A stretch of DNA of 45,788 nucleotides from Thermoanaerobaculia bacterium (GTDB lineage Bacteria; Acidobacteriota; Thermoanaerobaculia; Multivoradales; UBA5704). Of the stretch, positions 674-14,287 are shown one piece after another (position 1 is the first letter of the stretch; each line of letters starts with the position of its first letter). The DNA lies in the NCBI GenBank assembly GCA_044226625.1, contig JBGAGQ010000055.1, positions 1 through 45,788 on the forward strand, read 5' to 3'. The position numbers and the translations under genes were made by a program. The notes beneath the pieces were generated by a model. The model made no database searches, had not been told where the DNA came from, and saw only the letters and a list, made by a program, of their open reading frames with translations.

Positions 674-1729
674 ATGGAGGACTTCATCCTGACGCTAGTG
701 CCGCTGCCTGACGGGCACTTGGTGCGCGCCGACTGTCAGCTGATTGGCCAGCCCGAGCCGCGCCGGATCAGGCTCGAAGAGCGGCAGAAGCTTGAGGAGC
801 TGGGAGCGCGGCTCGCGGAGCGTCCCCTTAAGGAGATCACGGAAGTGGTGAAGGTCGGCCGAGATCTCTTCGGTCGCCTGTTCGGCAAGGAGCTCGCGGC
901 CCCCTTCTGGGAAGCGTCGGAGAAGGCACGGAACGACGGCGGCTTGAGGGTTCTGCTGCGGTTCGCAAAAGACGACCGCTTGCAGGACCTCCCCTGGGAG
1001 CTGCTGCACGACGGCCGCTCGCCTCTGGCCTTAGACCCCGCGACGGCGCTCGCGCGTTATATCGAGATGCCGCAACCGATCAAGGTGCCGCGGCCGAAGG
1101 GGCGGCTGCGGGTGCTCTTCACTTCGGCCTGCCCCCCCCTGGCCCAACGGCTTGACCTGGGAAGCGAGGAAAGAAGGGTCCGCCGCGCCCTGGAACTCGC
1201 AGGTGTGGACCCCCAGATTGAAAACCGGGTCACCTTGGAGCTGCTGAAGCTTCTCTTGATTCAGGCCGAGCACACGGGTAAGCCTTTTCACGTCTGGCAT
1301 CACGCCAGCCACGGTTTTCTCGACCGGCAGGGAAGCTTCCATCTTGTCCTCGAAGGTGGTGAAGAGGGGCGGCATGTCGGGACCGACGAGGTCTCCGGCA
1401 TCCTCGCGCAATGCCCCAGCCTGCTGGCCGTCGTGCTCAATGTTTGCCACGGGGCAGCCCTCGCCACCTCCCTCGCCTGCGCCAAGGTCCCGGTAGCGAT
1501 CGGGTTCCGCGAGCAGATCCAGGACCGCGCCGCCTTGCTGTTCGCCGAGCGCTTCTACAAGAGCCTTCTAAGGCATCCCGTGGAGGTCGCGCTGGCGCAC
1601 AGCCGGCTGGCGCTCGCCTACCAGGGCTGCCCACTGCTGAACTGGACGAACCCCATCCTGTACACGAGGACCACCAGGGCGGTCCGCTTCGTGGAGGAGC
1701 GCCATGGAAGATCTCACGGAAGAGCCTGA
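674..1729 (+). CDS. Stand-alone CHAT-domain (caspase-like) protease
   Basis: LQDLPWELL, VWHHASHG (His), VVLNVCHG (Cys), FAERFYKSL and W..PILY motifs; 351 aa. Confidence 0.85.
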   Translation: MEDFILTLVPLPDGHLVRADCQLIGQPEPRRIRLEERQKLEELGARLAERPLKEITEVVKVGRDLFGRLFGKELAAPFWEASEKARNDGGLRVLLRFAKDDRLQDLPWELLHDGRSPLALDPATALARYIEMPQPIKVPRPKGRLRVLFTSACPPLAQRLDLGSEERRVRRALELAGVDPQIENRVTLELLKLLLIQAEHTGKPFHVWHHASHGFLDRQGSFHLVLEGGEEGRHVGTDEVSGILAQCPSLLAVVLNVCHGAALATSLACAKVPVAIGFREQIQDRAALLFAERFYKSLLRHPVEVALAHSRLALAYQGCPLLNWTNPILYTRTTRAVRFVEERHGRSHGRA

Positions 1730-4700
1730 AATTGGCGTAGCGGAGGAGGGCGAGGATTTCGATCCCGCGGTGAGAGATTTCGTGCGCGTAGACGAGGACG
1801 ACTTGCCGGCGATTCCGCCCCCGCCCTCCCTTCCCGAGCTCGACGTTCCCCCGGACCTACTAGACGACCTGGAGGGAGAGACCTTCGGACCGGCAGACGC
1901 CTATCACGGCGAGAACGACGAGAGGGATGTTGAAGAGGAAGCGGAGGAGAAGGAGGATTACAGCGACGACGACGATCCAGCCGCCCTGTGGATCGACAAA
2001 TCGCTCATCGCGCGCGTCAACCAGATCTTCGTCGCGCCGCCGGGCTACGGCGAATCTCTACAGAAGCTACGCGCGCGGATCCTCAACAGCCACGTCTTCA
2101 TCCTGCATGGCGGAGAGCATTCGGGCAAGCTGACTTGCGCCCTGCACCTCGCGCAGGACCTCCTCACTCGGAGCGGTAAGGAGCCGAGGATCGGCTGCTA
2201 TCGCCGCCGCGCGGACGAGTCGCCGTCGCTTCTCGATCTCGTGCGGCAGGATGCCGTCAAGAGAGACCGCGCCTACATATTCGAGGACGCGTTCCCTAGC
2301 CTCTCGACGGAGGATCTTGAGCCGCCGTTTCTCAACCGGTTGAACGAGAGACTACAGGACAGGGGGTCTTTCCTCCTTCTGACGACCGAGAGACCGGTGC
2401 AGGAGCTACCCGTTAGCGTGGCGAAGGTGCACGTGGCGATCTGCGACCTGAGCCGCGTTTTCCTCAACCACCTCGACGTGTATCGCACCAACCTGATCGG
2501 CGCCGACCGCATCGTCATCGACGACGAGGCCCTCGATCTCGCCGGCCAAAACTGGGATGCGCTTAAGGGCGACCTGAAAGACCCCGATCAGATCGACGAG
2601 TTCTGCCGACGGCTGGGTGTCCAGGGAGGAGTACCGAGCGCAGAGGAGCTGAAGAAGCTCGCCCGGGAGATTGCCCTGCGCCGGATCGAGGCGGCACGCC
2701 CCTGGTTCGCGGGCCTCAGGCTGCATGAGAAGCTTTTCGCCTTCCTGGTGGTCCTCTTTCCGGGCCGCGATGGCCTGAGCCTGTACGAGATCTTCCTCGG
2801 TGCCGTCGCCCAACTGCGCGGTCACGGACTTCGGCTGAAGGATCCGCGCGAGCTCGGTTACGACGATCTCCTCGACCGCATTCGGGCTGTGGAGGGGCCG
2901 ACGCGCGAGATCGATTTCCAGGAGCGGGCTATCGGCGGCGAGGTGGAATGGCAGATTAAGAACTACAACCATCTGCTCTGGTCTCTGGTGCCGTGGTTCC
3001 TCGAGGAGATCCAGAGAAGCCTGGGAAAGCAGGGGGCGGAAGCCCGCCGGAGTCTGGCGGTCGCCGTCGGCAGGATCGGGCTCCATCACCCGGCCCAGCT
3101 CCGAGACCGGCTCGAGGAGCTGGCAACGCGTCCAGTCGCCAATGTAGCCGCGGCGACCGGCTATGCCTTCAGCGAGGTCTGCTTGCGCAACCGCGATGCA
3201 GACCAGAGGGTTTGCGAGGTTCTCGCCGAATGGGTGGCCTCCCGGCAGTCTCGCCTGATGTGGGCGGCGAGCTCCTGCATCTGGCGGGTGTACGGCGCCT
3301 TGAAGCGGAGTGGGCGGGACACCGCGAAGACGCGAGAGCACCTGCTGGAAACGCTCGAAGAGCTGATCTCCAGGCTGGCGGAGCCGCTAGGCCCCGAGGA
3401 TCGCAGGGCCGCTGCGGCGATCGCCAGCGACAACTGCCAAGACGCCAAGGCGGCGAAGCGCCAGACCGACGAGACCCTCAAGTCCTGGGCGGACAAGACC
3501 TACAAGGGTGCTCGGACCGCTATCCAGCGGATCGCTGCAGCCGACCCGGAGGGGATGATTGCGAGACTGCGGCTCTGGCTGGCCGGTGGTCGGCCGGCTC
3601 TGCGTCGCATAAGCATCGGGGTGATCCGCCAGCTTTTCGCAGACGCAGCGCGGGAATCGGGCCCGCCACCTCGGCGGCATCTGGCGCTTTCCGAGCTCGT
3701 CGAGCCCGTCCTCGCGCATTGCGGCGAGGGGAGCCAGACCAGGGAAGCGCTGTTCAGAGCGCTGGCCGGCTGGGTGGGCCAGTCCGAGGCGCCCAGGGCC
3801 ACGAAGCTGCTGCTGCAGGCCGCCAATCGCCTCCAGGGCAGGGCGGCGAGAGCGTTTCGCAGCAGCCTTCAGCCGTGGCTCGAGGACCCTTCCCCGGATG
3901 TCCGGCGCCTGGGGGGAGCGCTGCTCATGCGCTCTCTCCTGCTCGAGGGGGCGGTCGTCCCGGCGCCCGACTCGGCTCTGGGCGCCCTCGTCCTCGACGC
4001 TTCCACCGAGGCCTTGGCCGAGACTGACTATGAGCCGATCGCACGGCAGGTCTGGAACCTCTTGCAACCCCGCCTCGGTCTACGGCTGGTCCGCATGGGC
4101 GAGGGGCGCGAGCTGGCGAGCCCGGGCCAGCTTTTCCCCGCGCGCGGCGTCCTGGCGGGCGCATCCCGTCCCCGGCTGTTGCTGCCCACGTTCGACGCCA
4201 TCGGCGCGGAGAGTCTCTGCCTCGCCGTCGTCCTCACCACGGGGCCGATCCTCGACCTCGCGGAGGCCTCAATGGCCGCCTGGTCAAGCAACCTGCTGCT
4301 GGTCGATTTGGCCAAGGCGGGCAAGGAGCAGGATCTCCCGCGGGCGGTCTACCTCAACCTCCGTTCGCCAGCAGGGGGTCTCGCCGATCTGACGGCGAGG
4401 ATCGACGACCGCTTTGCGGCGTTGCTCGCTCCTGTCGGCAGCGGCGTGCACGAGGCCGAGTGCGACGAGATGGAAGCCAGGCTCGAACAGTGGCTCGGGG
4501 AGCTTGACGAGCCGCCCAGCCTGGCGGAGCCGCCGGATCGGGCGCTCGCGATTCTGCGTGGGGTGCTGGGGCTGGCGGAGTCCCATCTCGACAGGTGTTC
4601 GGCCCTGCTGACGCGCTGGCTGGCGCCAAGCTCCGGCGAACTCGCATTGCGCATGGGCGCCACCGCCGTTCGTCTGCTGCTGCGGATCGAGGCGAACCAC

Positions 4701-5777
4701 CCCCCTCCCGCGGCGCCGGCGCGGGCTCTGCTTTTCGGGTTGGCGACCGCCCTTGGCACCTACGGCCCCGAGGGCAGCCTCGAAACGGCGCTCTCGATCG
4801 TGTGCCGCTGGTTGCCGCTAACAGATTGGCGCGCCGCCCTGCTCGACGGCGCTGGCGACAGGCCCGCCGCGCTTCGGCAGTGGATCGAAGGCCTCCTGCC
4901 AAGTCATGCGGAGCTGCTATCCCAGACTCTGACGACTTGGCGGCGCTCCGTCGACGAGGGATCGGAGGAGGACGCGCGGCGGCTGAGCGAGGCCGTGGAT
5001 CGAATCGAGGAGTGGATCGTCGCCGGCCGGATGGCGAATCCTGTAGAGACGCCGCCGAGCGTCGTTCCCGAGGTAGCCAGCCAGCCCCTTCTCGCCCCTG
5101 CGGTGGTGAGGACGGCGGTCCACTCCTCCTCCCACACGGCTGATCCCGCGGGCTTCCCCATGGTGTGGATCGAAGAGATCGGCGCCTACATGCACTGGCT
5201 GCCCGTCACCAAGCTCCAGTTCGAGAAGTTCGTCACCGAAACTCCCGACCCACTCTTCGACGACGCCTGGTATCGCCGGACGCTCGACCTCAACCCGCGC
5301 GTAGCCGTCCCCGAGATCGATCCCGAGAACTACCTCCAGGCCTTCCTCACCGGAATCCTTCCTGAGGAGGCGAGCCGGTTCGCCGCTTGGTGCGGCGAGG
5401 ACTACGCGCTGCCCACCCTAGCGGATTGGCAAAAGGCCTATGCCGCCCTCGCGGCCGAGCCAACCTGCGCGCTGGCAACTCTCGATCTCTCCGCTACGGC
5501 TGGAGAACTCGTGCGGACGTTCCTCACCCGGATCGAATCGTCCGCTGCCGCCCGGCCCGGCCCGGCGCGCACCCGAGTCGATCAGATGCTCATGCGGCGC
5601 GGCGTGCTGGAGTGGGTCAAGCAGGACGGGCGGTCCGGCCGCTGGGGGGGGATGGGAGAGCCGGCGCCTCATTTCAAGATGCTCTGGTCCATCGAGAGAG
5701 GACTGGCCGTGCCCCGCGACGCGGGTTCCTCCCGCTCCAGCGCCTTCGGGTTTCGGCTGATCCGCAGGCCGGCATGA
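1704..5777 (+). CDS. 1357-aa multidomain protein: acidic N-terminus, degenerate STAND-like P-loop, helical (HEAT/ARM-like) repeats, degenerate vWA-like segment, C-terminal FGE/SUMF1-like domain
   Basis: SD GGAGGAG before the ATG. VFILHGGEHSGKLT (Walker A-like), AYIFED (Walker B-like). ALVLDASTE and AVVLTTGPILD are vWA-like with a broken MIDAS. C-terminal LPVTKLQFEKF, FAAWCG..ALPTLADW, VLEWV and FGFRLIR fit the FGE-sulfatase fold. Confidence 0.7.
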   Translation: MEDLTEEPEIGVAEEGEDFDPAVRDFVRVDEDDLPAIPPPPSLPELDVPPDLLDDLEGETFGPADAYHGENDERDVEEEAEEKEDYSDDDDPAALWIDKSLIARVNQIFVAPPGYGESLQKLRARILNSHVFILHGGEHSGKLTCALHLAQDLLTRSGKEPRIGCYRRRADESPSLLDLVRQDAVKRDRAYIFEDAFPSLSTEDLEPPFLNRLNERLQDRGSFLLLTTERPVQELPVSVAKVHVAICDLSRVFLNHLDVYRTNLIGADRIVIDDEALDLAGQNWDALKGDLKDPDQIDEFCRRLGVQGGVPSAEELKKLAREIALRRIEAARPWFAGLRLHEKLFAFLVVLFPGRDGLSLYEIFLGAVAQLRGHGLRLKDPRELGYDDLLDRIRAVEGPTREIDFQERAIGGEVEWQIKNYNHLLWSLVPWFLEEIQRSLGKQGAEARRSLAVAVGRIGLHHPAQLRDRLEELATRPVANVAAATGYAFSEVCLRNRDADQRVCEVLAEWVASRQSRLMWAASSCIWRVYGALKRSGRDTAKTREHLLETLEELISRLAEPLGPEDRRAAAAIASDNCQDAKAAKRQTDETLKSWADKTYKGARTAIQRIAAADPEGMIARLRLWLAGGRPALRRISIGVIRQLFADAARESGPPPRRHLALSELVEPVLAHCGEGSQTREALFRALAGWVGQSEAPRATKLLLQAANRLQGRAARAFRSSLQPWLEDPSPDVRRLGGALLMRSLLLEGAVVPAPDSALGALVLDASTEALAETDYEPIARQVWNLLQPRLGLRLVRMGEGRELASPGQLFPARGVLAGASRPRLLLPTFDAIGAESLCLAVVLTTGPILDLAEASMAAWSSNLLLVDLAKAGKEQDLPRAVYLNLRSPAGGLADLTARIDDRFAALLAPVGSGVHEAECDEMEARLEQWLGELDEPPSLAEPPDRALAILRGVLGLAESHLDRCSALLTRWLAPSSGELALRMGATAVRLLLRIEANHPPPAAPARALLFGLATALGTYGPEGSLETALSIVCRWLPLTDWRAALLDGAGDRPAALRQWIEGLLPSHAELLSQTLTTWRRSVDEGSEEDARRLSEAVDRIEEWIVAGRMANPVETPPSVVPEVASQPLLAPAVVRTAVHSSSHTADPAGFPMVWIEEIGAYMHWLPVTKLQFEKFVTETPDPLFDDAWYRRTLDLNPRVAVPEIDPENYLQAFLTGILPEEASRFAAWCGEDYALPTLADWQKAYAALAAEPTCALATLDLSATAGELVRTFLTRIESSAAARPGPARTRVDQMLMRRGVLEWVKQDGRSGRWGGMGEPAPHFKMLWSIERGLAVPRDAGSSRSSAFGFRLIRRPA

Positions 5778-5807: not shown

Positions 5808-6812
5808 ATGAGCCCCGACCGCCAACTCATCTGCCCGCTTAGCCTCAGGGAGACCGCGGTGGCCGGATCCCCGGCGAAGTGCAACTGCTGCAGCGAAGTC
5901 CTGCCGCCACTTTACGTCAATGAGGCACAGGGCCTCCAGCCGTTGCCGATTCAGTTCTTCGGCCTGAGCGGACATGGCAAAACCGCTTACCTGGCGGCGC
6001 TGACTGTGGCGCTGCAACGAGTGAACTCGGTCTGGAACGGCTTCACGGCAACGCCGGCGACCGAGCAGTCCCGCAGGCTAGTCCGGGAAGCCAATGTCTA
6101 CTTCGCCAGCGGGCAGCTGCCGCCACCCACGCCCTTAGGGTCCAAGGGCTGTTTCCTGATGCTGCTGAACCGCATTCCGAAGTGGATGAAAGCAGCGCTC
6201 ATGATCCGCGACTGCTCGGGCCAGGCTTTCCGGGACTTCAACGTCGATCTGCAGGAAGCCAGCTACCTGCTCAGGGCACCGCTCACCTTTCTGTTCATCA
6301 GCCTCAAGGACCTCCAGGGCGGGGATACCGTCGATGTCCTGCTCAATGACTACCTCGATGCCCTCGCCGCGCACGGGGTGCGGCCCGAGCTGGAGATGAA
6401 GAAGCTCGTGGTCGTGCTTACCAAAGCGGATCTCTTGCAGGAGGAGCTCCCGGACGACCTGCTGCAGGCCGTCCGGGAAGATCGGCTTTGGCAGGCATCC
6501 CAGATGGAAACGGAGCCCAGGTGGTCCGCCGTGGCGGACATGGACACCGACCTGGGAGCCCTGGGTGAGATCAGCCGGAGCATCGAAGCTTGGATCTGCC
6601 GGCGAGCCGCCGGCCGCACCCTGGTGACGTTGGCGCGCGACCGCAGCATCGAGATTCGGTTCACCCTCGTCTCGTCGACCGGCTCCGCACCGCGCGCTCA
6701 GGACAATGTCCTGGCGACTGGCTGGGAGCCGAGCCGTGTCCTCGATCCGCTGATCTGGGCCCTGGAGCTCAACGAAAGACGCATTAAGGATATGCGGCGG
6801 TATTTCCGGTGA
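5808..6812 (+). CDS. TRAFAC-class GTPase with N-terminal Cys cluster (resembles the double-GTPase family of NTP-dependent conflict systems)
   Basis: G1 GLSGHGKT, PPPT (G2-like), G3 DCSG, G4 TKAD; N-terminal CPLS...CNCC; SD AGGAG. Confidence 0.75.
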   Translation: MSPDRQLICPLSLRETAVAGSPAKCNCCSEVLPPLYVNEAQGLQPLPIQFFGLSGHGKTAYLAALTVALQRVNSVWNGFTATPATEQSRRLVREANVYFASGQLPPPTPLGSKGCFLMLLNRIPKWMKAALMIRDCSGQAFRDFNVDLQEASYLLRAPLTFLFISLKDLQGGDTVDVLLNDYLDALAAHGVRPELEMKKLVVVLTKADLLQEELPDDLLQAVREDRLWQASQMETEPRWSAVADMDTDLGALGEISRSIEAWICRRAAGRTLVTLARDRSIEIRFTLVSSTGSAPRAQDNVLATGWEPSRVLDPLIWALELNERRIKDMRRYFR

Positions 6813-6862: not shown

Positions 6863-8068
6863 TCACGAAACGTAGTCGCCGATGTTCGTCTCGACCTTGG
6901 CCATCTCCTTCTCCTTCCACATCTCCACGATCCGCTCGGCGATCTCCGATTGAGCGCCCGCGATGCGTTGCATCAAGGTCATGTTCGCCTGCAGCTCGGT
7001 CTCCTGCCGCTGCCTGTTCCTCTCCGAGTTAAGGAACATCTCGGTTTTTGCATAGTCGTCGACCTCGGAGGTCTCGTTCCGGGTCTTGACGTCCAGCCTG
7101 TGCTGCGTCACCTCTCGGAACTGCTTGGACGACGCGACGACCTGGAACTCGCGGTCCTCCAGCTTCTGCTCATAGGGTCGGTAGGGACTCAGTGTCGACA
7201 GCAGCTTGACGCTGATTGGCGCGGTCTCGAGAGCGATGAAAAGCAGAGTGATGAACAGGTTCGCCGAGTGCATGCCGTCGCTCGCGTCGTTGAGCTGGGC
7301 GAGCGCCTCGAGCCGTGCCAAGAGCCCGTCCGCTTTCTCCCGCGCATCCGCCGCCTGCTTGATCCGCTGCTTTCGCTCTTCCTCGAGTCTGGAGATTTCT
7401 TTCTCGTTCGGTAATATAAGTTCGTTGTTCTTTTTCTCCAGATCGTCAAGTTGCCGCTTCATCTCTTTGAGGCGCAGCTCCTTCTCACCGAACACCGGAC
7501 CCTTGCCCGGAATGAACGTTCCCCCGGTCCCCTCCGCTTCCTGTATCCATTCCTTGTACAGCTTGTCTAACGCCTCTTGCTTGTCGCGGATCTCTTGATG
7601 AAGCTTCTGATTCTGATCCTTGAGGCCCTGGAGTGCTCCGTAGGCGCTATCGACGGCTCTTACTGTTTGCTGATAAGTCTCGTTGTTGTGCTGGGCGATT
7701 TGTGCCTCGATCTCGCGCTCGAAAAGCTTGAGCTCGAGAGGCTTGGCGATCACCATGGCCAGCAAAGCGGCGAGCAACAATCTGGGTAGTGCATAGAGAG
7801 CATCCCACCAGAAGCTCGCCTGCTTGCGCATGCCGGAGATGATGACGCGATCGAGATTGAAGATCATGATCGCCCACAGCAGGCCGAACAGGCAGGTGAC
7901 CCATACCGATCGAAATACGGTGAAGAGGGCGTACCCACCAGAGAGGCCGGCGAGCATGGCGGTAAAGAAGATGGTTGCGCCGATGCCGACGTACTTGGTG
8001 ACCTCGGTGGGGCACTCTTCCAAGACTTCGCGGTTCGCACCGGAGCAAAAGATGAAAAACCCTTTCAT
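6863..8068 (-). CDS. DUF4407-like membrane protein with long coiled-coil (401 aa; start corrected to 8068)
   Basis: MKGFFIFCSGA..CPTE.TKYVGIG start with SD AGGAGG and an ATGA overlap with the kinase stop. Three N-terminal TM segments (IFNLDR, IAKPLEL..FE.EI), a coiled-coil with EAEGTGGT..PGKGP, and a C-terminal TM (FIALETAP). Confidence 0.75.
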   Translation of the reverse strand: MKGFFIFCSGANREVLEECPTEVTKYVGIGATIFFTAMLAGLSGGYALFTVFRSVWVTCLFGLLWAIMIFNLDRVIISGMRKQASFWWDALYALPRLLLAALLAMVIAKPLELKLFEREIEAQIAQHNNETYQQTVRAVDSAYGALQGLKDQNQKLHQEIRDKQEALDKLYKEWIQEAEGTGGTFIPGKGPVFGEKELRLKEMKRQLDDLEKKNNELILPNEKEISRLEEERKQRIKQAADAREKADGLLARLEALAQLNDASDGMHSANLFITLLFIALETAPISVKLLSTLSPYRPYEQKLEDREFQVVASSKQFREVTQHRLDVKTRNETSEVDDYAKTEMFLNSERNRQRQETELQANMTLMQRIAGAQSEIAERIVEMWKEKEMAKVETNIGDYVS

Positions 8069-9648
8069 TTCGACCCTCCTATGACCTGGTTCGTCGCACT
8101 CCTGAGTTGGTCGAAGAGGGCGCTGATCTGCCCTCCAAGGCGGACGGCAAGGCGCGGGAAGCGCCGGGGTATCCGGGCGTGGAGCCCCCGGACCGACTCC
8201 ACCGCACCCCGTTTCAGCGAAGGGTCCTTGACCTGCGCCGTGAGGACGAGCGCGATCGGCAGGCGAATCGCCGGGATAGCAGCCGGCAGGACTCGCAAGG
8301 AGACCTGCTGGTGGATGTGGCAGGTGGGGACTGCGACCGATCTCATGACTGGGATGGGCCACACACGCACCGAGGTATATTCCGTGGCGGACACGCCGTT
8401 CCTCGCGCGGGCGCTTAGCGTGTAGGTCGTTCCTCCGGATGGCGACAGCTCGATCGAGCCTGTGGCGTCAATGGCGCCGACACCCTGGTCGATAGATACA
8501 TGATGTGCGCCTGTCACTCGCCAGGAGAGGCGCGTACGCGTCCCTTCAACGAGTGTCTCTGGATCGGCGACGAAGAAGGCGATCTCCGGCCCTCGTTGGG
8601 TGGCGCGCAGGACCAAGGCCCACTGCTGGTAGGAGGTCCGCAAGCGTGGATCGGAATGGCCTTCGTTCATGGTCGCCTTGAGCTTCTGCACTAGGGCCCT
8701 GGGCAAGGCGTCGAAGTCGCCGCGGTACTGGTGGTACAGCGGCTCGGAATCCGGGTTGAAGATCGGATCGTCGGGAGCGATCTCCGGCCACTCGTAGCGC
8801 TCGAGGTAGCTCTCGACCGACTCTCGGCTGAGATAGTTATTGAAGAAGAAGAGTGGGTGAAACAAGAAGAGCAGGTGATGAATGCCGATGAAAACCGACC
8901 AGGTGTCAGTGAAACGATCGACTCGAATTGCCGCGCCGGTTGTGGGCTGCGTCACCATCTGCTCTTTAATCTCCGGCGCCAACCACTCGTCGCGCTTGCC
9001 GAAGGTAGTGGGTTGCTCGTCCACACGATCGGTCACTGCGCCGCTGTCGTAATCGATGATGGCCAGATGGCACTCTTCGATGTTGACCAACAGATTGGGA
9101 GCGTTGATGTCGGCATGAATGAACGACATCTCGGCCAGCGCTTGGAAACCCTCGACGAGCTCGGTGGCGAGTAGGAGCCGATCCTCCATGCTCAACCTCT
9201 CATACGGGGAGTAGCCCCCGTGATAGTCGTCGAGGATGGCTGATAAAGAGACGTACCCTTCCGTGTCGAGGCGGTCCGCCGCATACCCCAGCACCTGGCG
9301 GCCGTCCATCTCGCCGATGAAGCTGAACTGGGGCAGGGCGCGGAGCGCCGGAAGGCTTTCGAGACCGGGTTGCCCCGAGGCGGCGCGCCGGGCGTTGCTC
9401 TCGCGGATCCTGCCTTGCAGCTTGCGGATCGCCTCGAACCCCTTGCGCGCACTGCCGAAGCCGTTGTCGCGCAGGATCTTGACCGCCTGAGCCGAGGCGG
9501 GAGCGGCACCGTTGATCGAAAGGCAAGCGTAGACCTCGCCGAAGCCGCCGCGCGCGAAGATGGGGCCCGCGAGTTCCAAAGAATGGATATACCCGAAGCC
9601 GGGTCGCAAGCCCGAGTGGAAACTATCGATGTTGGTGACGACTAGCAT
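8065..9648 (-). CDS. TerY-P/YegI-like Ser/Thr kinase with Ig-like C-terminal region
   Basis: ARGGFGEVY Gly-loop, AVK, HADINAPN catalytic loop, IIDYDS (YegI-type DxDS instead of DFG), WLAPE, D.WS. C-terminal beta-rich segment LSWRVTGA..SIDQGVG...TYTLSA. Confidence 0.8.
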   Translation of the reverse strand: MLVVTNIDSFHSGLRPGFGYIHSLELAGPIFARGGFGEVYACLSINGAAPASAQAVKILRDNGFGSARKGFEAIRKLQGRIRESNARRAASGQPGLESLPALRALPQFSFIGEMDGRQVLGYAADRLDTEGYVSLSAILDDYHGGYSPYERLSMEDRLLLATELVEGFQALAEMSFIHADINAPNLLVNIEECHLAIIDYDSGAVTDRVDEQPTTFGKRDEWLAPEIKEQMVTQPTTGAAIRVDRFTDTWSVFIGIHHLLFLFHPLFFFNNYLSRESVESYLERYEWPEIAPDDPIFNPDSEPLYHQYRGDFDALPRALVQKLKATMNEGHSDPRLRTSYQQWALVLRATQRGPEIAFFVADPETLVEGTRTRLSWRVTGAHHVSIDQGVGAIDATGSIELSPSGGTTYTLSARARNGVSATEYTSVRVWPIPVMRSVAVPTCHIHQQVSLRVLPAAIPAIRLPIALVLTAQVKDPSLKRGAVESVRGLHARIPRRFPRLAVRLGGQISALFDQLRSATNQVIGGSK

Positions 9649-9666
9649 CGGCGCTACCTAACCTTC

Positions 9667-10557
9667 TCAAGGAGCCGCGTGGCGCCGCTTCCGCCGCTGG
9701 TACTCGCGCGCCGCGCCGGTAACGATAAGGCCGAGGGTGGCGTCGTCCTCGATGAGAGAGCGGTCCTTCAGACCTTGGAGAAAGTGTTGCATTCGGTCCT
9801 TGAGGGACGGACCACCGCAGGGTTGGGAGAAGTAGCCGCCTAGGCAAGCGTAGAATTCCACCATAGGCTCCTCGGCCTTGATCCACAGGTCGCCTTGCGC
9901 GTCGGTGCCGTAGAGGAGCCGGTCGGCTGAACAGACTCCGTCGGTGCAGAGCAACAGAATGTCGCCAAACCGTGGGTCCTTGTCGACGGCAACCACGGTG
10001 GGTGGGAAGCGGTCGAACTCCTGAGAGAACGCGACGAGGTTGTAGAGCTGCTCCTTGCCATCGCTGAACAGGGAGTGGGGGCGCAGGTAGTTGGCCGAGC
10101 TCCACGGCAGCCCGTTCGTCGGCGCAGATTCGTCGAAATTGCCCCGCAGATGCCAGATGGCGCCGTTGCCGACATAGGCCGCCAGCAGGTGGGTGGGGGT
10201 CTCGACGCCGAGAAGAAGAGTCGTTCCGTAGCAAGGTTGAGAGGCGTCCGGAGGGGGCTCGCGCTTACCGAACTCGCCCCGCAGGTCCTGTCGCAGCCTG
10301 CTGAAAAGGGCGCAGAGGCCTGCGGACGAAGCGGGCTTCTGCGACTGCGCGAGCGCAGCCGCCCGCTGGACGGCGAACCGGGCAGCCTCTCCCGCGTTTA
10401 TGTAGCTGCCCAAGCCGTCCGCCACGGCGACGCCCCGGTAGGTCGAATCACTTTCTACCCAGAGCACCGCCGCATCTTCAGTCTCCTCCTCCCTGGCTCT
10501 CAATGTGACCGAGGCCAGGCAACAAAGAGAGCCTAGGGGCTCGCCGTCCGCCGTCAT
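9667..10557 (-). CDS. PP2C-family phosphatase (TerY-P/YegK-like)
   Basis: VAVADGLGS, GTTL, VGNG, LLCTDGV and DDATL motifs; ATGA overlap with the vWA stop. Confidence 0.85.
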   Translation of the reverse strand: MTADGEPLGSLCCLASVTLRAREEETEDAAVLWVESDSTYRGVAVADGLGSYINAGEAARFAVQRAAALAQSQKPASSAGLCALFSRLRQDLRGEFGKREPPPDASQPCYGTTLLLGVETPTHLLAAYVGNGAIWHLRGNFDESAPTNGLPWSSANYLRPHSLFSDGKEQLYNLVAFSQEFDRFPPTVVAVDKDPRFGDILLLCTDGVCSADRLLYGTDAQGDLWIKAEEPMVEFYACLGGYFSQPCGGPSLKDRMQHFLQGLKDRSLIEDDATLGLIVTGAAREYQRRKRRHAAP

Positions 10558-11228
10558 AGCGAAGGGATACCCGTGTTGATGGACATTGACTCGTGGAGGA
10601 AGCCCCTGAGGCTCTCGGCGTCGTGTACGGTCTGGTATCCCCTGGCGGGATTGCTGGCCAGGTGCCTGAGATGCTCCTGCGCCACGGTGTCCTGGCTGCC
10701 GAGCCCGGCGAAGTAGGTCGAGCAGACTGTGATCGCTTGGTTGCGCTTGATCTCTTCGGAGACGCGCAGGCTCTCCGCTGGGTCTACGACCCCACCTTCG
10801 CCGTCGCGGCCATCCGACATCACCACGAGAACCACCGATGAGGGGACGCCGCGGGGGGCCTGGCGCAGGAAATCCTCCGCGACTCGCTTAGCCTCCAGGA
10901 GGCCGGACCCGATGTTGGTTCCGCCGCCATGGTTCTGCAGGGGGTCATAGTTGCCATCGTCATTGACGTCGATGGCAGCAGTGACTGGCGTGTGGAGCTG
11001 GGCGTTCTCGTCGAAAGTCACGACGGAGAAAGAGAAGTTCTTGACGTAGCGTGATTGGCGGAAGCGAGTGAAGAGGCCGCGGACGGCGGAGTTCACCGCC
11101 TCAGCCTTGCTGATGTGGCCGGCCGCTGGCTCTGACATCGAGCCGCTGCCGTCCAGGACGAGGATTCCCAACTGGTTGAAGGACGGTGGCGCCAGACTGA
11201 CGGTAGTGGTGCGCGATCTTTCAAACAT
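10554..11228 (-). CDS. vWA-domain protein, TerY/YegL-like
   Basis: Intact MIDAS: LVLDGSGSM, GGTN, VMSDG. First gene of the vWA-PP2C-kinase triad. Confidence 0.85.
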   Translation of the reverse strand: MFERSRTTTVSLAPPSFNQLGILVLDGSGSMSEPAAGHISKAEAVNSAVRGLFTRFRQSRYVKNFSFSVVTFDENAQLHTPVTAAIDVNDDGNYDPLQNHGGGTNIGSGLLEAKRVAEDFLRQAPRGVPSSVVLVVMSDGRDGEGGVVDPAESLRVSEEIKRNQAITVCSTYFAGLGSQDTVAQEHLRHLASNPARGYQTVHDAESLRGFLHESMSINTGIPSL

Positions 11229-11420
11229 GTTTTCTCCGGCTTTCGGTTATGGATGCTGCCAGCCTCGGGGATCGAGGCAAATTACAGGCACGGTGCCCGG
11301 TGAGAAAGACACCGAAGGGGGCGGAAATGTATGAAGGCGGAGAGAATGAAGGGTGCACCCGTTTCCACCGCCTCAAAACCTCTCAGAACGTTGGCCCGCA
11401 ACTTAAGGAGCGGGGGCACC

Positions 11421-12020
11421 TAGTGGCTCGTAACGAAGGAATTAAAGCCGCTATGATCTTGCTTCAGGGCATGACCGAATCCAAGATTGTGTTGAGCGTT
11501 GCAGAGCGTGAAGAGCTTGAGCGGCGTCGCGGGTAGCGCAAGCTTCGGGCGGACGACGTGCGCCGCGCTCGTCTGATTCTGATGTTGGCCGCGGGAGAGT
11601 CATACACGTCGATTCAGACGGTTCTGGGCTGTGACCGCGGCTACATCGGCCGATGGAAAAGCGCTTTCTGGAGGAGCGCTTGGCGGGCCTGCACGCTCGC
11701 CATCTCGGCCGAGTAGCGACCATTCAGACTCCTCAGATGGAGGCTCGAATCCTCTCCTGGACTCGGCGTAAGCCGACCGATGGTTCGACGCATTGGACGG
11801 CGAGAAAGCTCGCGAAAGAGCTTGGCGTGTATCCCACATGTTGGTCGCGCGGGTCTGGAAGCGAGCGAATCTGAAGCCCCATCGGCTCGAACGATATATG
11901 GCGTCGAATGACCCTGATTTCGAAACGAAGGCCGTGGACGTGATAGGGCTTTGCATGAATCCGCCCCAGCACGCCGCGGTGTTCTGCGTCGACGAGGAAA
12001 CGGCGATTCATGTCTTGGCA
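11421..12020 (+). mobile_element. IS630-family element remnant with a pseudogenised transposase
   Basis: Putative left end TAGTGGCTCGTAACG at 11421. MTESKIVLSVAEREELER is followed by an in-frame TAG (11534-11536). Later fragments in different frames carry THWTARKLA, LKPHR, SNDPDFETKA.DVIGL.MNPP and VFCVDE. Truncated after the first catalytic Asp. Confidence 0.8.
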
Positions 12021-12049
12021 CGCGGATCAAGTGGACCGGATTGTTGAGT

Positions 12050-12873
12050 TTGGTGTAACCACATTGTTCCAGAGCCATTCGGGCCAACGCCGGGGACCGA
12101 ACGCAGAAGATCTTCCTGGACCTTCCAGGAGGGGCTCGCCTGCACCATACGATCCAGGTCACGGTCTAGCGGTTCGATCCGTTTGCGCAGCCAGGCGATG
12201 TGGGCCTTGACGTTCTTGATTACCGCTGGCTGACGACTTTGGGCGAGGCGGTTTGCTCTGCGCCGAGCATCTCGAGAAGCGGTCGTCGACCAGACAGAAG
12301 ATCCTCGAGCTGCTATCGTTCCGCCAAGGCCCAAGGGCGCGGCTCCGGTCGGACGCGTTCGTCGAAGAGGGCCAAGACCTTCGCGTCAACCCGATCGGTT
12401 TTGGCCAACTGGCCGAGGGCTCGAGCGAAGTCTCGCACCTGTCGGGGATTGACGATCGAGCAAGGGATTCCCGCGTGAGCCAGTGCGGCCCCAACGGGCT
12501 TCTCAAAGCCGCCTGTTGCCTCCAGGACGACCCGCACATCGGGCAAGGCGGAGAGCTGGGCAACCAGCTCCGCGAGACCCCTCTCGTCCGCTGCGACGGA
12601 TCCTTGGATCCCCAACGGCTGAACGAACCAATCCAACTGATTCTTGGAAAGATCAATGTCGGCGATCCGGTCCATGACAGTCTCCTCTGCCTTGGCTGGC
12701 ACCGTAGCTGCCGTACACGCTCATCCTTGCGAATGCGGGCTCAGGAGAAGCCCAGCAACTCGGGCTCTGCGGCAGCCTCACCGGTGGCGCTCAAAGCTCC
12801 CCCACGTGCTTTTAAACACCCGGAACGATCGAGCTACCACCGGCGCGGCGGTTACACCTGAGGAAGATACAAG
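12050..12873 (-). mobile_element. IS110-family element remnant: frameshifted, truncated transposase plus a non-coding left end
   Basis: DIDLSK, VVLEATGGFE, NPRQVRDFARALG and KTDRVDA (DEDD RuvC-like domain). A second frame gives LLRSVPGVGP and then truncates. The minus strand starts CTTGTAT at 12873. Confidence 0.8.
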
Positions 12874-13017: not shown

Positions 13018-14088
13018 CTAAGGACAACGGACGAACGATGTCGTGTCGATCACCGGAGCCGCCGGGGGACCGGGGTAGCGGAAATAGATCCGCGCCAAAC
13101 CACCCCGGATGTCGAAGACCTCGATGCGCTGGAACAGGCTCGAGGGCGACGAGAGTGCTAGGGTGAATTTGCCCGAGGTCGAGCACGAGTCGATGACGTT
13201 GGCGAGGACCTGCCAGATGTCGTCGTTCGGGAAGGCGAGGATTCCGGAGGACGTTGAGGAGGTCCGCGCGGCCTCCACGGTCTCGTCGGTACCGGGGGCT
13301 CCGACGCGGTATTTCGCGGAGATCGCGAAACGATCCTGGAGGCAGAGCGAGGTCGAGGTGCCGGTGCAGGTCAGCGCCACGGGGAAGGTGAAGAAACCCG
13401 TTCCGGAACCGCCGACGGAGCCGTCGTGCGGTCCCACCACGTCGTTTCCGTTACCGTCGAGGGACCAGACGGCGACCAGGCCCGGCTGCGGCGCGGTGAT
13501 CGTCCGGTTGAGGAACTGGCGAATTTGCGCCTGCGTCCGCGCGATGCTCCAGAGGCGGACCTCATCGATCGAGCCTTGAGGGCTGAACGGGAAATTGAAT
13601 TCGCTGCCGATCCGCACATCGACGTTGTCTGTGGTCAAGGGCCCCGTCTCGGGAACGCTCAAGACCAGCTCGCCGTTGATGTAATGAAGGCGGCGCGTCC
13701 CGTTGAAGACGACCGCGACGTGGGTCCAACCGCTCGGGACCACGCCCCCTTCCTGGATCGAGGCGTTGCCTTTGAGGTAGGACCGGAGGCGGTTGCCGCA
13801 AACTCCGACCCACCACGCGCGGGAGAAATCCTTGCCCGCGATCGTGCTGCAGCCGTTCGGATCGGTGATCGCCACCCAGGCTTCGAGCGTGAAGCGATTC
13901 GTCGGATTGAGCGCCGGGCTGTGCGGAACGAGGATGTACCCCTCCGTCGGCCCGGACAGGTGGAACCAGGCGCCGAACGGCTGGGCGCCGGCCTCGCGGG
14001 GGACCATCAGACATCCGAGGGCGAACACGCCCCCGAGCAGAGCGGCACGAAGGGTCGGAACGGAGCGGAGAGGCGAAAGGGCGTTCAT
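13018..14088 (-). CDS. Secreted LamG/concanavalin-like domain protein
   Basis: Signal peptide (..EAGA). FTLEAWV, WTHVAVVFNG..LHYING and GSIDEVRLWSIART are LamG_3 motifs. C-terminal domain begins CTGTSTSLCLQDRF. Confidence 0.8.
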   Translation of the reverse strand: MNALSPLRSVPTLRAALLGGVFALGCLMVPREAGAQPFGAWFHLSGPTEGYILVPHSPALNPTNRFTLEAWVAITDPNGCSTIAGKDFSRAWWVGVCGNRLRSYLKGNASIQEGGVVPSGWTHVAVVFNGTRRLHYINGELVLSVPETGPLTTDNVDVRIGSEFNFPFSPQGSIDEVRLWSIARTQAQIRQFLNRTITAPQPGLVAVWSLDGNGNDVVGPHDGSVGGSGTGFFTFPVALTCTGTSTSLCLQDRFAISAKYRVGAPGTDETVEAARTSSTSSGILAFPNDDIWQVLANVIDSCSTSGKFTLALSSPSSLFQRIEVFDIRGGLARIYFRYPGPPAAPVIDTTSFVRCP

Positions 14089-14287
14089 CGAACGGACCTC
14101 CTCGAATTCAAAAGGAATCATCAGAAACGGATAGCAATGCGGCGATCTTAGCTTTGAATGGGCGCGGGAACAGCTCTCGGCGTTTCAGGTTCGAGGCCGC
14201 CCCGCGGATCTCGTGGGGTTCGCCGGCGAAGCCCTCGGGGCGGAAGGCCGACACCGTCTAGAATTCTCGGCCGGAGAATTCCCCGCC

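Follow-up and report, generated by a model that had tools for sequence, protein, structure and literature searches.

In a 45,788-nucleotide stretch of DNA from a Thermoanaerobaculia bacterium (contig JBGAGQ010000055.1, positions 1 to 45,788 of the forward strand; called the window below), we analyzed a run of four minus-strand genes in the order vWA, PP2C, Ser/Thr kinase, and DUF4407. The first gene (10554–11228, minus strand) encodes a vWA protein, putatively of the TerY/YegL type, 224 amino acids long (Pfam PF00092, E = 7.6e-11), with an intact MIDAS motif. It is followed by the gene of a 296–amino acid PP2C-type Ser/Thr phosphatase (9667–10557, minus strand; PP2C_2, PF13672, E = 1.9e-15), by that of a 527–amino acid Ser/Thr kinase recognized by Pfam kinase models (8065–9648, minus strand), and by that of a 401–amino acid membrane protein of the DUF4407 family (6863–8068, minus strand; PF14362, E = 5.8e-89). 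All four open reading frames (ORFs), together with two ATGA overlaps, were found where an earlier reading of the letters alone (the original prediction) had placed them. As read in the sequence, the ATGA at 10554–10557 lays the stop codon of the vWA gene over the start codon of the PP2C gene, and a gap of 18 nucleotides separates PP2C from the kinase. The ATGA at 8065–8068 joins the kinase stop to the DUF4407 start, with a Shine-Dalgarno sequence (aggaggg) upstream. The DUF4407 gene is translationally coupled to the kinase gene, as had been proposed for the fourth gene of the run. The presence of vWA, PP2C, and kinase genes in one operon likewise bears out the assignment to the TerY-P-type architecture, reportedly first described by Anantharaman et al. 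in 2012. A scan of the stretch for promoters and terminators gave nothing better than shuffled sequences.

The fourth gene product had been described as DUF4407-like. Its match to PF14362 is full-length (298.7 bits against a cut-off of 31.3, covering profile positions 1–297 of 297), and the protein is a true member of the family rather than a mere look-alike. Family-averaged hydropathy gave four hydrophobic segments, at approximately residues 27–50, 57–73, 97–116, and 269–290; segments 1 and 2 (residues 27–73; 7850–7990, minus strand) contain no lysine or arginine. The AlphaFold2 model, built from 111 sequences, has a mean predicted local distance difference test score (pLDDT) of 86 and consists of helices throughout. 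Segments 3 and 4 are connected by a long hairpin (residues ~117–268; 7265–7720, minus strand, as delimited by DSSP of the model), and a 97-residue helix comes after segment 4. This anatomy agrees with the “about four” transmembrane helices and long coiled coil expected by the original prediction. The Gly-rich tip loop of the hairpin (~177–190) is conserved, with E177, G180, and G190 invariant in the 111 sequences. Invariant residues also include C8, one of two conserved N-terminal cysteines, and three charged residues inside segments 3 and 4 (E112, E281, and K288); the other cysteine, C19, is invariant among close relatives. The counts of lysine plus arginine were 3.4 for the N terminus, 0.3 for the loop between segments 1 and 2, and 5.2 for that between segments 2 and 3. 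The positive-inside rule would place the N terminus, the loop at residues 74–96, and the C-terminal helix in the cytoplasm and the hairpin in the periplasm; should segments 3 and 4 not cross the membrane, the hairpin would instead be cytoplasmic.

Searches with the DUF4407 model and sequence returned little beyond the family itself. Foldseek against the Protein Data Bank found nothing at E ≤ 0.001, and a wide VIA-align search reached a best Z score of 9.8, with generic helical hairpins throughout, which is under the level that counts for helical proteins. The ESM Atlas held nothing besides DUF4407 itself (best score 0.75), PHROGs gave no match, and NCBIfam gave nothing specific. The guanine-plus-cytosine content over 7001–8000, within the DUF4407 gene, is 0.575, compared to 0.62–0.70 in the adjoining kilobases; either a foreign origin or the Lys/Glu-rich coiled coil could account for the drop.

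The catalytic domain of the kinase (residues 1–345; 8614–9648, minus strand) scored 24.0 bits with PK_Tyr_Ser-Thr (cut-off 23.1) and 30.2 bits with Pkinase, just below the cut-off of 31.7. Residues K57, H178, D180, N185, D199, D201, and A224/E226 are invariant among 33 aligned relatives. We take K57 to be the ATP-binding lysine, H178/D180 and N185 the HxD...N motif, D199/D201 the DFG-type aspartate, and A224/E226 the APE motif. In the vWA protein, D26, S28, S30, T104, and D139 are invariant among 23 aligned relatives and presumably form the DxSxS...T...D metal site by which the MIDAS motif is defined. Thus conserved, both the kinase and the vWA metal site look functional, and an active Hanks-type kinase is predicted. 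The kinase has no hydrophobic segment and is predicted to be soluble. The vWA protein was matched by generic VWA models alone, and several of its relatives are named “uncharacterized protein YegL” at their source. The PADLOC matches of the kinase were confined to the generic kinase models mad6, PD-T4-6, and MkoA.

A separate feature of the vWA family is an N-terminal DnaJ (J) domain, present in 16 of the 120 listed relatives (P0245, P0252, P0253, P0262–P0264, P0268, P0274, P0275, P0282, P0285–P0289, and P0293). For P0264 and P0274, the longest contig on record equals in size that of DUF4407 relatives. This suggests recruitment of Hsp70 in some cassettes.

Downstream of its catalytic domain, the kinase carries an immunoglobulin (Ig)–like module. 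Residues 354–434 (8347–8589, minus strand) form a confident eight-strand beta-sandwich (AlphaFold2 pLDDT ~94), whose closest structural counterparts by Foldseek are Ig and PKD domains (E = 5.5e-4). In the tail (residues 435–527; 8068–8346, minus strand), alignments show a conserved VRVWPxPxxxSLxVP linker, followed by a low-confidence stretch (pLDDT <50) and a short terminal helix with IFxQL. No zinc-ribbon or OB-fold family was matched by Pfam in the C terminus of the kinase. Among the kinase relatives, 36 of the 37 close ones and 73 of the 83 more distant ones have the Ig module, and the C termini found among the relatives are Ig plus tail, Ig plus TIR, FGE-sulfatase, and BON. In three Longimicrobium-type relatives (P0141, P0148, and P0151), the Ig-like domain is followed by a TIR domain instead of the tail; the longest contig of one of these equals in size that of a DUF4407 relative.

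The same sandwich and linker also occur as a stand-alone protein of 215–249 amino acids. Since basic residues follow its N-terminal hydrophobic anchor, this protein is probably cytoplasmic. Its gene lies 0–37 nucleotides upstream of DUF4407 in three loci (L003, L014, and L070) and recurs in a fourth (L081) as a fragment truncated by the contig end, which amounts to four of four loci of one Bacteroidota clade. A module that forms part of the kinase in one lineage and has its own gene beside DUF4407 in another provides, by gene arrangement, the strongest argument that the kinase may be physically directed to DUF4407. A complex prediction for DUF4407 with kinase residues 345–527 scored 0.00, which counts neither for nor against binding. 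We also considered a signature in the C-terminal helix of DUF4407 (E358, N362, I369, A372, V381, W384, and E388) as a specific docking site; it was rejected because a Che-linked group without the Ig module carries it as well. Short tandem repeats, with units such as gatggac and gatgaat, are present upstream of the stand-alone gene of L003 (6900–7100).

The order vWA-PP2C-kinase-DUF4407 recurs in the three other genomes for which the full context of the cassette was available (L001/G401, L207/G738, and L223/G1063). The first two are Acidobacteriota, and we infer that they belong to the class of the window, because a genome of the same order as the window (G131) recurs as G416 in the class of G401. 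The third comes from the Bacteroidota sample, and its kinase and DUF4407 genes overlap by 4 nucleotides, as in the window; it is also the only distant kinase relative with a fetched context, and DUF4407 lies downstream of it. For relatives known only as proteins, linkage was inferred where the longest contig on record has an equal size for both proteins. By this fingerprint, 25 of the 43 closest listed DUF4407 relatives (43–89% identity) share the size of their longest contig with a kinase or vWA relative, and so do 20 of the 26 with contigs of at least 6 kb. In contrast, the fingerprint appeared in 3 of 75 more distant listed relatives, all three being additional DUF4407 paralogues carried by the same Longimicrobium-type contigs. 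One pair, P0009 and P0126, has adjacent NCBI locus tags.

In a FastTree phylogeny of 145 DUF4407 proteins, all 31 triad-labeled rows fell within one 50-row clade with a support of 100, and the DUF4407 of L223 formed a separate long basal branch outside it. Pairwise identities of DUF4407 proteins and of the matching kinases were correlated (r = 0.88 over 22 pairs, with none of 2000 permutations as high). Although the proteins are only 36–60% identical, Acidobacteriota, Longimicrobium-type contigs, and one genome of the Bacteroidota with different flanks keep the order of the cassette. The cassette is conserved in at least three bacterial phyla. As an additional observation, Longimicrobium-type contigs apparently carry two DUF4407 paralogues (P0026/P0048, P0027/P0055, and P0035/P0046), one full-length and the other of ~310 amino acids, aligning to only ~75% of the window protein.

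The triad link is confined to part of the DUF4407 family and to particular lineages. L001 is the only triad-bearing locus among 163 DUF4407 loci listed from genome and metagenome collections, nearly all of which are from Bacteroidota. In a sample of 401 genomes from the phylum of the window, four carried DUF4407 in some form, and neither of the two from its own genus or family was among them. No kinase-domain match was obtained at E ≤ 1e-8 in the 400 other genomes of that sample, where all matches were to the Ig domain, and one Bacteroidota genome out of 401 contained a kinase of this family (query P0171) at E ≤ 1e-25. The triad-linked form of DUF4407 is rare, sparse, and patchy.

The cassette of the window faces a convergent operon on the plus strand. 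Its first gene encodes a CHAT (caspase-like) protein (674–1729, plus strand; PF12770), and a second CHAT ORF (1–618; PF12770) is cut by the start of the window; the E values of the two are 9.9e-14 and 8e-45. Next come a 1357–amino acid protein with a weak C-terminal FGE-sulfatase match (1704–5777, plus strand; E = 0.0011, below the cut-off) and a GTPase of the DO-GTPase2 family (5808–6812, plus strand; PF19993, E = 4e-10). The same operon, with a CHAT gene and an orthologue of the 1357–amino acid protein, occupies the same convergent position in L001 (9236–15849) and L207 (2802–9783); L207 has an extra gene, for a 303–amino acid protein, between the giant protein and the GTPase. Close orthologues of the GTPase were found in the L001 and L207 genomes only, that is, in 2 of 381 genomes of the class. 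The operon is absent beside the L223 cassette. The four genes therefore form an autonomous unit, which the DO-GTPase operon accompanies in a lineage-specific manner. The neighbors of the L223 cassette are HSDR_N, DUF6804, SNase, OmpA, and two TerD genes, with TerD ~2 kb away. In the window, we found no TerD and no DNA-processing or restriction module associated with the triad.

Directly upstream of the cassette lie insertion-sequence (IS) remnants (11641–12702, with no strand assigned), comprising an HTH_32 match (11653–11874) and a DEDD_Tnp_IS110 fragment (12313–12702, E = 4.2e-15). Altogether, fragments of this kind, namely, HTH_32 and the N terminus of an IS110-type DEDD transposase, span 11249–12702, and the next intact gene encodes a Laminin_G_3 protein (13018–14121). 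At the outer flanks, the genomes diverge: the window has the IS110/HTH_32 remnants, L001 encodes a RecQ-like helicase, and L207 encodes a CHAT-FGE-sulfatase protein. A conflict role is favored by the patchy distribution and by the elements found alongside the genes (IS remnants, TIR fusions, CHAT, DO-GTPase2, restriction, and TerD). Thus, the cassette is likely to be a horizontally moving, defense-type module, for which such a role is likelier than a housekeeping one.

Outside the triad, DUF4407 has other company. Its commonest neighbor is a BlaI/BlaR1-like pair located upstream (35 of the 163 listed loci). Other kinases also stand directly upstream of it in two loci. In L165/G034, the kinase is accompanied by CHAT and by a match to a STAND-like NTPase that is weak (E = 0.0035, below the cut-off); in L209/G694, the match is to Pkinase plus TPR. 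The Rhodococcus plasmids pLW2 (L214, 5127–10680) and pFiD188 (L220, 4093–10720) share the order NYN nuclease, DUF4407, PP2C, FHA, and FtsW/RodA, with an 800–amino acid form of DUF4407. The NYN and DUF4407 genes of pLW2 overlap, and pFiD188 has an additional 382–amino acid form. On a third Rhodococcus plasmid, DUF4407 lies amid DUF262, GIY-YIG, DUF3883, and restriction genes. In two Bacteroidales-type loci (L015, 4489–11707, and L027, 4345–12353), genes for CheR, a small histidine kinase, CheD, and CheB precede DUF4407, and a PAS/GAF protein follows it. No methyl-accepting chemotaxis protein was present among the eight genes called around these two DUF4407 genes, and DUF4407 may stand where such a protein would. 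Homologues of DUF4407 were also detected in 15 of 50,697 phage records, all of them Prevotella Lak megaphages (MK250015–MK250029; 32–34% identity). DUF4407 recurs beside enzymes that covalently modify proteins and in conflict-type islands.

On these grounds, we see an even chance that the four-gene cassette is a conflict-type TerY-P phospho-switch joined to a DUF4407 inner-membrane protein. The triad would act as a reversible phospho-switch. The Ig-like module with its tail would serve as a DUF4407-associated adaptor, which would bring the soluble kinase to the cytoplasmic face of DUF4407. DUF4407 itself would provide the platform in the membrane and, most likely, the substrate that the kinase phosphorylates and PP2C resets. 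The vWA protein may gate or target the switch through its metal site, with the MIDAS motif binding a trigger or a partner. Within this scheme, a sensor or transducer platform, although falling slightly short of an even chance, is our preferred role for DUF4407 over that of a lethal membrane effector, which we hold to be distinctly less probable. We prefer the platform because most DUF4407 genes are solo genes without a regulator and because separate effector candidates (CHAT, TIR, and NYN) are present.

A broader and speculative version, which is somewhat improbable as a whole, would make DUF4407 a hitherto unrecognized class of membrane signal transducers. Their state would be set by covalent modification, with the modifying enzymes docking via adaptors: the Ig-module kinase and PP2C in the triad, PP2C/FHA in Actinobacteria, and CheR/CheD/CheB in some Bacteroidales. 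Such a transducer would consist of a membrane-embedded base and a long hairpin with an invariant tip, and the triad cassette would amount to a receptor for envelope or phage-entry events whose kinase is attached non-covalently.

Several observations weigh against the phospho-switch scheme. A periplasmic hairpin would leave a cytoplasmic kinase only the N terminus, one loop, and the C-terminal helix of DUF4407, and the signature of that helix is common to the triad clade, the Ig-linked clade, and a group without the Ig module. About 160 DUF4407 loci have neither the triad nor an Ig-module gene; part of what the family does is therefore independent of this kinase. The original prediction would have been refuted by a lack of linkage in other genomes; the linkage recurs in L001, L207, and L223, though not in the family at large. 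The equal-contig-size fingerprint is indirect and used only the 120 listed matches per search. Last, vWA, PP2C, and DUF4407 had no match in PADLOC even at E values up to 10 (a library whose TerY-P content was left unchecked), and IMG/VR yielded no kinase relative.

The original prediction regarded the fourth gene as encoding a membrane effector or kinase substrate. The effector part of that proposal, in which phosphorylated DUF4407 would oligomerize, depolarize or permeabilize the inner membrane, and thereby abort infection, strikes us as doubtful. It would fit a last, translationally coupled gene of a defense-type triad, the four hydrophobic segments with invariant charged residues within segments 3 and 4, and the occurrence of DUF4407 in Lak megaphages and on plasmids amid nucleases and restriction genes. 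The DUF4407 model also has a weak Foldseek likeness to the alpha-pore-forming toxins AhlC, YaxA, and MakA; however, at E values of 0.1–0.3, these structural matches are not significant. Moreover, most DUF4407 genes stand alone in stable Bacteroidota neighborhoods with no visible regulator, which would be odd for a toxin, and the same systems contain CHAT, TIR, and NYN as other obvious candidates. A platform, transducer, or substrate fits the contexts at least as well as an effector, given the solo genes, the Che-type, FHA/PP2C, and other-kinase neighbors, and these separate effector candidates.

Less probable still, and in our view unlikely, is housekeeping in the form of envelope-stress or cell-surface signaling, with DUF4407 reporting the state of the envelope and the triad relaying it. 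The frequent position of DUF4407 after the BlaI/BlaR1-like sensor pair and its Che-type and FtsW/RodA-FHA-PP2C neighbors would agree with such a role, as would published tables in which a DUF4407 gene is listed as PhoP-dependent in Riemerella and another entry as root-induced. Yet the triad-linked form is very sparse and patchy, and IS remnants, TIR fusions, CHAT, DO-GTPase2, restriction, and TerD neighbors are typical of mobile conflict systems. A mere inheritance of gene order, with no functional tie between DUF4407 and the triad, would suit the fact that two of the three other full-context genomes belong to the class of the window. We consider it very improbable, since the order has survived divergence to 36–60% identity and the change of flanks noted above, the start/stop overlap is found in both the window and L223, and the Ig module is independently paired with DUF4407 as a separate gene.

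The DUF4407 family is sizeable (1919 clusters passed E 0.001 among 8000 candidates scored). A literature search found no functional description of the family; in the papers examined, it appears in tables only. Through the conserved cassette and the split or fused Ig module, our analysis gives this uncharacterized family a first testable role, as the partner of a known switch, and extends the TerY-P triads by a subtype linked to the membrane. The analysis shows in addition that the variable C terminus of the triad kinase is the slot deciding its partner.

The convergent CHAT/giant protein/DO-GTPase2 operon has the appearance of a DO-GTPase conflict system in which no GAP1 can be detected. It resembles such systems, as far as the main text of Kaur et al. 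2020 (PMC7159879) describes them, in combining DO-GTPase2, CHAT, and a giant protein with an FGS-like end. According to that text, caspase-like peptidases are among the effectors shared across systems, and DO-GTPase systems have FGS effectors and membrane-proximal components. However, GAP1 is expected in DO-GTPase systems, whereas no GAP1 family was detected here in Pfam and NCBIfam scans, including those of the 1357–amino acid protein. Furthermore, the operon joins the cassette only in three Acidobacteriota genomes, and the term “TerY” is absent from the main text of PMC7159879.

With methyl-accepting chemotaxis proteins, DUF4407 shares, by analogy only, a membrane anchor, a long antiparallel hairpin with a conserved tip, and genes for protein-modifying enzymes nearby. 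Unlike chemoreceptors, it has no MCPsignal or HAMP match, and its hairpin may be periplasmic. The chemoreceptor matches in the fold search were generic hairpins (Z scores of 8.5–9.6, again under the level that counts for helical proteins).

The closest comparison is with the TerY-P triad, which, in the parts of PMC11090510 and PMC4978471 available to us, likewise unites vWA, PP2C, and a Ser/Thr kinase in one operon. The sparse, island-like distribution is another likeness; in L223, the cassette is located near TerD genes. In the available text of PMC11090510, triad kinases end in a C-terminal zinc ribbon (the CoCoNuT-linked type) or an OB-fold (the defense type of Gao et al. 2020), while the kinase described here ends in an Ig-like module and a tail. 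Anti-phage activity, which the original prediction attributed to the triad in general, is reported there for triads with an OB-fold kinase and not for the Ig-module subtype. The partners of published triads, by the main texts of PMC11090510 and PMC4978471 (a comparison that does not extend to Anantharaman et al. 2012), are DNA/RNA-processing, McrBC-type, and WXG/FtsK modules; here, in contrast, the fourth coupled gene encodes a DUF4407 membrane protein. The three domain types also occur in one operon in the YegL-PphC (YegK)-YegI set of Escherichia coli, a likeness by domain type and description only. As far as the portion of the preprint that we used describes it (bioRxiv 10.1101/819920), YegI is an integral membrane kinase with two transmembrane helices that works at the inner membrane. 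Thus, YegI has transmembrane helices of its own, whereas in the cassette described here, contact with the membrane would come via a separate protein, DUF4407.

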